Shown here piece after piece: positions 19,409 to 19,910 of a DNA stretch of 64,000 bases. A model generated the notes under the pieces. That model did no database searches, was not told the origin of the DNA, and saw only the letters and a program-made list of their open reading frames with translations. This DNA is from Eledone cirrhosa (lineage: Eukaryota). The stretch is from assembly GCA_964016885.1 (NCBI GenBank), contig OZ024740.1, positions 227,106,001-227,170,000 on the forward strand, given 5' to 3'. The position numbers and the translations under genes are program-made. Position 1 is the stretch's first letter; each line of letters starts with the position of its first letter.

Positions 19409-19474
19409 TCTATAAATATATATATATATATACAATATATTAATAAATGGAAACTATATTTATAAAACCATAAT

Positions 19475-19540
19475 TATTTTATTATATATATTTCAAGGGC
19501 GACCAAGGTAAATTATGGTGTGCTTTCATCAGATAAAATA
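19475..19540 (-). ncRNA. Minimal type I hammerhead ribozyme (family 1, left arm)
   Basis: Minus strand: TATTTTAT-CTGATGA-AAGCACACCA-TAATTTACCT-TGGTCGCCCTT-GAAA-TATATA-TA-ATAAAATA. Confidence 0.8.
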
Positions 19541-19647
19541 CAGATTTGTTTTATAAATAAATATTGACATACTGGAAAAAAGAGAACCTCAACCGTTGAG
19601 GATGTCTTTTTTCCAGTATGTCAATATTTATTTATAAAACAAATCTG

Positions 19648-19713
19648 TATTTTATCTGATGAAAGCGCACCATAATTTACCTTGGTCGCCCTTGAAATAT
19701 ATATAATAAAATA
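19648..19713 (+). ncRNA. Minimal type I hammerhead ribozyme (family 1, right arm)
   Basis: Plus strand: TATTTTAT-CTGATGA-AAGCGCACCA-TAATTTACCT-TGGTCGCCCTT-GAAA-TATATA-TA-ATAAAATA. Confidence 0.8.
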
Positions 19714-19847
19714 ATTATGGTTTTATAAATATAGTTTCCATTTATTAATATATTGTATATTTACTCCACTAAACTGTTGAGTGCTTTATATCAGTTATAA
19801 AAATGTTTAAGCTTGTTGAATCTCAACAAATTAAATATAACCTCTGC

Positions 19848-19910
<63 letters not shown>

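Follow-up and report, generated by a model that had tools for sequence, protein, structure and literature searches.

A hammerhead palindrome of Eledone cirrhosa belongs to a Penelope-like family with two fixed arm ends that point to probable twin priming of both target strands

A 333-bp palindrome with a predicted hammerhead ribozyme on each strand lies within a 64,000-nt stretch of the Eledone cirrhosa genome (assembly GCA_964016885.1, contig OZ024740.1, forward-strand positions 227,106,001–227,170,000; hereafter the window, numbered from its first letter). Judging from its sequence, it was inserted into (TA)n as a 5′-truncated copy of a Penelope-like element (PLE) that carries an ORF and shows motifs of the Hydra clade. 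This PLE represents a new family within a type already described, and the layout itself is already in print; what is new is mechanistic, as read from genomic copies: two fixed arm ends (Z and T), near-exclusive pairing of Z with T, and arms that are not nested one in the other. We consider it probable that the head-to-head arms arise by L1-like twin priming of both target strands on one uncleaved RNA, at two PLE start sites, and, with slightly more reserve, that these PLEs normally integrate in this way, from two fixed sites.

Results

Structure of the palindrome and of its hammerheads

The insertion and its borders have the following components:

19416..19432, (TA)n target tract on the left, of which the final 5 bases could belong to either target or element
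19428..19593, minus strand, Z arm, an inverted pLTR copy that ends at the family's fixed tail-less end (Z)
19475..19540, minus strand, predicted minimal type I hammerhead, core at −19532, predicted cut between 19483 and 19482
19589..19599, junction (centre 19594), inside a 5-bp mini-palindrome that the family naturally has; microhomology common to both arms
19595..19847, plus strand, T arm, a 5′-truncated pLTR plus tail, lacking the upstream ~20 nt that carry the commonest 5′ stop of the family
19648..19713, plus strand, predicted minimal type I hammerhead, core at 19656, predicted cut after 19705
19761..19847, plus strand, tail, ~90 nt from site Z to site T
19848..19874, right (TA)n target tract, then (AG)n up to 19912

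The arms (19425–19593 and 19595–19763), of 169 nt each, are 98% complementary and separated by a 1-nt spacer, with mismatches at 19427, 19521, 19584 and 19586; the 333-bp core centred on 19594 (19428–19760) contains three mismatches in 166 bp, in agreement with the near-perfect arms reported in the preliminary description of this DNA, which had also rightly placed (TA)n (19848–19874) after the tail (19761–19847). The tail, described there as unique, is instead sequence of the whole Penelope-like family; in full-length copies it continues into the ORF, whose ATG lies ~57 nt past T. Target-site duplications are unreadable at these insertions because of the (TA)n target.

It is extremely improbable that the palindrome is a MITE/TIR DNA transposon or an assembly fold-back artefact. 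The inverted arms do lie within TA and no listed contig spans the whole stretch, but the MITE/TIR candidate was rejected because the ends are unlike (Z vs. T) and the centres variable, and arms of the family extend into the RT ORF. The three arm mismatches also speak against these readings, as does an 81-nt contig from run X1 that crosses the palindrome centre (19554–19634) with 0 differences, even if X1 may be the assembly's own sample and, hence, not independent. Additionally, the identical layout at dozens of loci, with differing centres, makes an artefact unlikely.

Motif reading gives the same hammerhead build on both strands, with an 8-bp stem I, a bulged stem II and a 2-bp stem III with a palindromic loop, so that the proposal of a hammerhead on each strand stands as a prediction, with type I cores at +19656 and −19532. 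Rfam returned no hammerhead at gathering score in the whole window, nor up to E 10 in 19000–20600, with weak hits far below gathering scores, and the support therefore consists of motif plus covariation. Among the four hammerheads of the window, 59 of 60 cells are paired and four of the five stem II pairs are changed on both sides, a score that was equalled in 2 of 500 shuffles for a set of only four sequences, two of them the palindrome's own arms. In the available text of PMC4209133, minimal hammerheads with a palindromic loop in PLE pLTRs are dimer-dependent and of weak activity, and opposite-strand pairs of such motifs, 100–700 bp apart, had already been noted. Since the two ribozymes of the palindrome are on opposite strands, they would not provide in cis the dimeric arrangement that minimal hammerheads seemingly require (PMC4209133).

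A conformational switch between rod and hammerhead had also been suggested for transcripts of the palindrome. Both folds can be drawn and the cores are intact on both arms; nevertheless, the minimum free energy of the whole plus-strand transcript is −259 kcal/mol, compared to −157 kcal/mol with the hammerhead forced (a gap of 102), and forcing costs 99 kcal/mol in the minus-strand transcript and 3.4 in a single arm. As the arms are head-to-head, the antisense copy is transcribed before the ribozyme in either direction and, in predicted folding, 109 of 112 right-arm bases are already paired back once the cut site emerges. Likewise, the layout is not conserved, because centres differ from copy to copy and, of 50 insertions with two arms, only 20 carry a complete hammerhead on both. 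Lacking comparable folds and a kinetic window, the switch did not hold up, and we give almost no credit to a functional RNA that alternates between rod and active hammerhead; rather, the ribozyme of the palindrome copy is predicted by the folding models to be locked off in the rod within any read-through RNA. The long frames of the window included no recognised host exon, only simple repeats and fragments of LINE-type reverse transcriptase frames (20914–21597, 42516–43631 and 49605–50015, named by eye).

An ORF-bearing family with Hydra-clade motifs

Using the right arm as query against the 3.0 Gb genome, we obtained 2,710 first-look candidates, 40 of which were scored and were 96–100% identical. 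The family comprises about two thousand copies, and no fewer than 2,015 of its tail ends lie in (TA)n. Tracing longer copies upstream revealed a 3′ UTR and an ORF, and then whole units (pLTR-tail-ORF-UTR-pLTR) of 3.9–4.4 kb with a long 3′ UTR; direct pLTR repeats flank the ORF in the four long copies examined (L141–L144). The family also includes the inverted 5′-truncated copy and the tail (~90 nt) at a single end. Insertion in (TA)n is not only found where our end patterns demanded TA, because most partner arms also have TA at their far, unanchored end. Some copies show an expansion, to ~3 kb, of a 26-bp minisatellite of the 3′ UTR (L032, 4700–7600; L006; L045).

These comparisons agree with the previous assignment of the palindrome to a Penelope-like element with an inverted partial pLTR, which can now be linked to an ORF for an RT and a putative GIY-YIG endonuclease, and with its presumed youth: the insertion is fairly young, with an arm divergence of 1.8% and best relatives 96–98% identical. 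It had also been considered non-autonomous, which is correct for the palindrome copy alone and incorrect in the sense of a dedicated short element, as it is a 5′-truncated copy of an ORF-bearing family.

Copy L143 has an uninterrupted 741-aa frame, but with substitutions at conserved RT positions, and its product has 20 homologues of 31–38% identity. No RT or GIY-YIG match was found with Pfam on seven proteins, nor any match in a PDB sequence/profile search with the ORF. The structural model of the L143 product (pLDDT 82) gave TERT as the top fold match (3du5, E 1.4e-8), with other RTs near behind. In the putative endonuclease region, a bipartite Y...YxG pattern and R, E and N positions are conserved in the alignment; the fold search covered the whole ORF. 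The ORF contains the motifs RWR (RWK in most of the 20 homologues) and DKT, a CxCx5C linker, and CxxC and CxH around the conserved E and N, with no CCHH.

Based on sequence motifs and on the (TA)n target, the family matches the Hydra clade as it is defined in the available text of PMC8557442. Hydra-clade PLEs, such as Penelope-13_HM and Hydra-1_Obim, share with it RWK-type/DKT motifs, CxCx5C and a C-terminal endonuclease, putative in the present family, with CxxC and CxH, as well as a hammerhead in the pLTR and the (TA)n target, and supplement S1/S2 of that work includes a 5′-truncated inverted copy of Penelope-13_HM with a hammerhead on both strands (PMC8557442). Conversely, Hydra elements are 'generally' <3 kb with a tail of 30–40 nt according to the same text, whereas those described here reach 3.9–4.4 kb, with a long 3′ UTR and a tail of ~90 nt. 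The hammerhead sequence is unlike the one listed for Hydra-1_Obim (PMC8557442), indicating that both families are distinct. Our first guess, the Neptune clade, was dropped once the motifs fitted the Hydra definition. Non-LTR retrozymes also carry a minimal type I hammerhead with a palindromic loop 3 and are related to PLE pLTRs, but they are head-to-tail tandem repeats without an ORF (as far as covered in the texts of bioRxiv 10.64898/2026.07.22.740005 and PMC4209133), and were rejected because the arms of the locus face each other head-to-head and an ORF is present in its family.

Other palindromic and hammerhead elements

Next to the palindrome lies another family that shares its two-end layout (window 19914–20319), having a TA end at 20319 and another arm with its tail towards 19914; we found 3,244 first-look candidates for it, the best 12 loci having identical ends, and saw no canonical hammerhead core in its arms. 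Directly to the left of the palindrome there is an older inverted repeat (19196–19408, 75%). A 383-bp hammerhead palindrome at 26127–26509 (95%; cores at +26356 and −26280), with TA on the left and a short extension on the right, is probably another PLE family. Two related elements are on the minus strand: one at 18210–18515 (core at −18318), which combines an inverted arm made of tail alone with a short hairpin and a Z-type arm, in the same layout as the family under study, to which the other, a tail-ended element at 51070–51400 (core at −51262) with a short 5′ snap-back hairpin, is 83% similar. The 356-bp inverted repeat at 5144–5499 (91%) has a (TA)n core and is otherwise largely built of simple repeats.

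Elsewhere, locus L031 (G000:C2) contains at 4191–10000 an array of 310-bp tandem repeats, 99.9–100% identical and each with a hammerhead core, which flips orientation midway to form a palindrome >5 kb; its two halves meet head-to-head, and it resembles a retrozyme array of very recent origin. The flanks of L106, L124 and L132 carry a sister hammerhead family, in which stem I is the same and the palindromic loop 3 is GC-rich. Finally, the pairs L096/L097, L120/L121 and L245/L246 are near-identical insertions with common flanks, ~0.9–1 Mb apart on contig C1, which suggests that they are segmental duplicates or haplotypes left uncollapsed.

Two fixed end sites and the pairing of Z with T

Exact end patterns abutting (TA)n were counted genome-wide (controls, 0), resulting in 2,015 T ends and 1,691 Z ends; exact read-through matches numbered 1,004 past Z and only 13 past T into the ORF. 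Sites Z and T are ~90 nt apart, and each is a short UA tract, located upstream of the ATG and able to pair with (TA)n.

For the T-anchored set, we took the first 90 of the 100 T ends listed, in order along contig C1, and examined 30 loci with 1.5 kb and 60 with 4.8 kb inward; one duplicate was dropped, leaving 89. Arm coordinates were curated by hand and are accurate to ±2 nt near the pLTR, being rough for long arms. An abutting partner arm was present at 59 of the 89 loci, ending at Z (50), at T (2), elsewhere (4) or out of view (3), while 30 had no scorable partner (solo, interrupted or unresolved). Pairing was thus Z with T in 50 of 52 cases, vs. T with T in two (L189 and L199). None of the partner arms of these T-anchored loci ended in loop 3 of the hammerhead, whose UA tract is longer, indicating that microhomology alone does not fix Z. 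When loci were anchored on Z, the first 30 included 14 with a T end within 1.5 kb (one duplicate and several common to the T set) and 0 Z–Z pairs, and a second set of 40 loci, picked to avoid those seen before and of which 39 were distinct, had a tail-bearing partner in 22 of 39, with one doubtful Z–Z.

Among the 50 Z–T pairs, the Z arm reaches >10 nt further 5′ than the tail arm in 37, about the same in seven and less in six (37/43, p = 1.6e-6), the corresponding split being 17/2/2 for the 21 pairs scored in the second Z-anchored set. Twenty of the 50 tail arms share no overlap with their Z arm, four loci have tail arms as short as ~8–17 nt, and kilobase Z arms face short tail-arm partners in L031, L032, L045, L087, L158 and L244. 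Each arm usually holds sequence that the other lacks, and neither can therefore be a fold-back copy of the other, barring later deletion. The palindrome at 19428–19760 falls in the near-symmetric class (7/50).

Source, age and 5′ ends of the arms

In 23 insertions, the arms agreed in 93 of 100 allele comparisons over five subfamily sites, and in 10 of 13 at a sixth, and differed from each other by 3.5% vs. 5.4% from other copies. The concordant alleles indicate that both arms derive from one source, and gene conversion could have contributed to it. Priming from two separate RNA molecules, each giving one cDNA, would produce overlapping arms without strand displacement and would account for the discordant alleles (7/100). 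We nonetheless deem it quite improbable, because T–T or Z–Z pairs would then be frequent and we found 50 Z–T vs. 2, and because of the allelic concordance itself, which two RNAs from a single source locus would still fit.

The base just outside Z is A in the Z arm facing eight of the nine tail arms that have G, suggesting that the bases outside Z in Z arms derive from the (TA)n target; this A-vs-G difference fits wobble-pair priming, without being decisive. The 5′ ends cluster at an Inr-like A located ~20 nt upstream of the palindrome centre (20/50 Z arms; 19/80 T arms within −20..−13), and this commonest stop, which the palindrome copy lacks, is likely the transcription start. Tail arms, solo arms included, show a second hot spot ~45 nt from T (16/80 within 12 nt). 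Only one of 50 Z arms and none of 80 T arms ends at the ribozyme cut, which suggests that the hammerhead seldom sets where the template's 5′ end lies, although the solo arms L106 and L107 finish in a TA run that might mask such an end.

Fold-back versus twin priming

The inverted repeats of PLEs have been attributed to self-priming on an antisense template (PMC3846280, in the portion available). In our case, a T-primed cDNA, or such a template, would snap back and copy itself up to Z, being cut or joined there, and later deletion, in a palindrome that is unstable, would generate the asymmetry. We view this as unlikely on the whole, yet it deserves serious attention. The junction at 19594 is a natural mini-hairpin, the arms carry common alleles, seven of 50 pairs are near-symmetric and six nested, and short snap-back hairpins do exist. 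A Z-with-T pairing is equally expected under fold-back, and divergence was 1.8% in tail-only insertions (n = 18) vs. 1.3% in overlapping ones (n = 20), in the direction that later deletion predicts, although not significantly (p = 0.12). Indeed, for the window locus alone snap-back fits as well as twin priming, and the near-symmetric copy with its junction in a natural mini-palindrome counts against the latter, as do the short nested 5′ hairpins (L146, L233 and window 51340–51390) and the two T–T palindromes.

Across the family, however, fold-back demands one-sided deletions of up to ~3 kb, nearly always in the tail arm (37 vs. 6; 17 vs. 2), that would moreover have to halt at the hot spot shared by solo arms. 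Solo Z arms end at Z, as do four of four full-length copies, which have an inverted tail arm upstream; Z would thus also have to be a start of first-strand synthesis, so that fold-back needs two roles for each of Z and T.

The twin priming that we favour would proceed as follows, all its steps being inferred from genomic footprints. The RT-endonuclease would nick both strands of the (TA)n target; one nick would prime on the short UA tract at T and the other on the Z tract ~90 nt upstream in the same RNA, most template RNAs not having been cut by the ribozyme. When the T-primed cDNA stalls inside the tail, as would often occur, an L1-like inversion would result; when it passes Z, both cDNAs would copy one pLTR and yield a palindrome that carries one hammerhead per strand. 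Microhomology would serve to join the cDNA ends, and overlapping arms would require strand displacement on a persisting RNA. PLE reverse transcriptases are not known to have RNase H.

Discussion

The proposal of one nick priming at T and the other at Z combines L1 twin priming (PMC2837659) with the two start sites and the extension of both strands described in PMC11167929 for PAc, a Poseidon element of Anolis. In vitro, both strands of the PAc target are cut and extended, with starts at two sites flanking the tail on uncleaved RNA (PMC11167929). PAc and the family described here coincide in having two sites, one on either side of the tail, where RT starts (here putatively), and in an AT-rich target, but PAc starts are within the ORF and without homology to the cut DNA, whereas here they are UA tracts upstream of the ATG; in the available text of PMC11167929, two-site priming is not tied to inverted insertions. 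In L1 twin priming, the second target strand likewise primes internally on the RNA, leading to a head-to-head inversion, although this is a variant route whose priming site and deletion are both internal (PMC2837659, in the part available); here the second site does not vary and serves in the majority of insertions, and the arms may overlap into palindromes. Our literature search, within the texts at hand, found no proposal of twin priming for PLEs, and the available portions of bioRxiv 10.64898/2026.07.22.740005 and PMC12910113 do not address the mechanism of PLE inverted repeats.

The palindrome locus is in itself ordinary, being one of thousands of truncated PLE copies with a layout that is drawn in PMC8557442. 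Its family bears, nonetheless, on how the inverted repeats and tails of PLEs arise, a matter that the preprint of PMC8557442, in its available part, states to be unresolved, ascribing the tail to endonuclease resolution and calling the process undefined. The ~2,000 end-defined copies constitute an in vivo footprint matching the biochemistry of PAc (PMC11167929). If twin priming is correct, the tail at one end only, the inverted pLTRs and the hammerheads paired on opposite strands would all follow from one step, and PLEs would routinely prime both target strands, seeding genomes with long palindromes.
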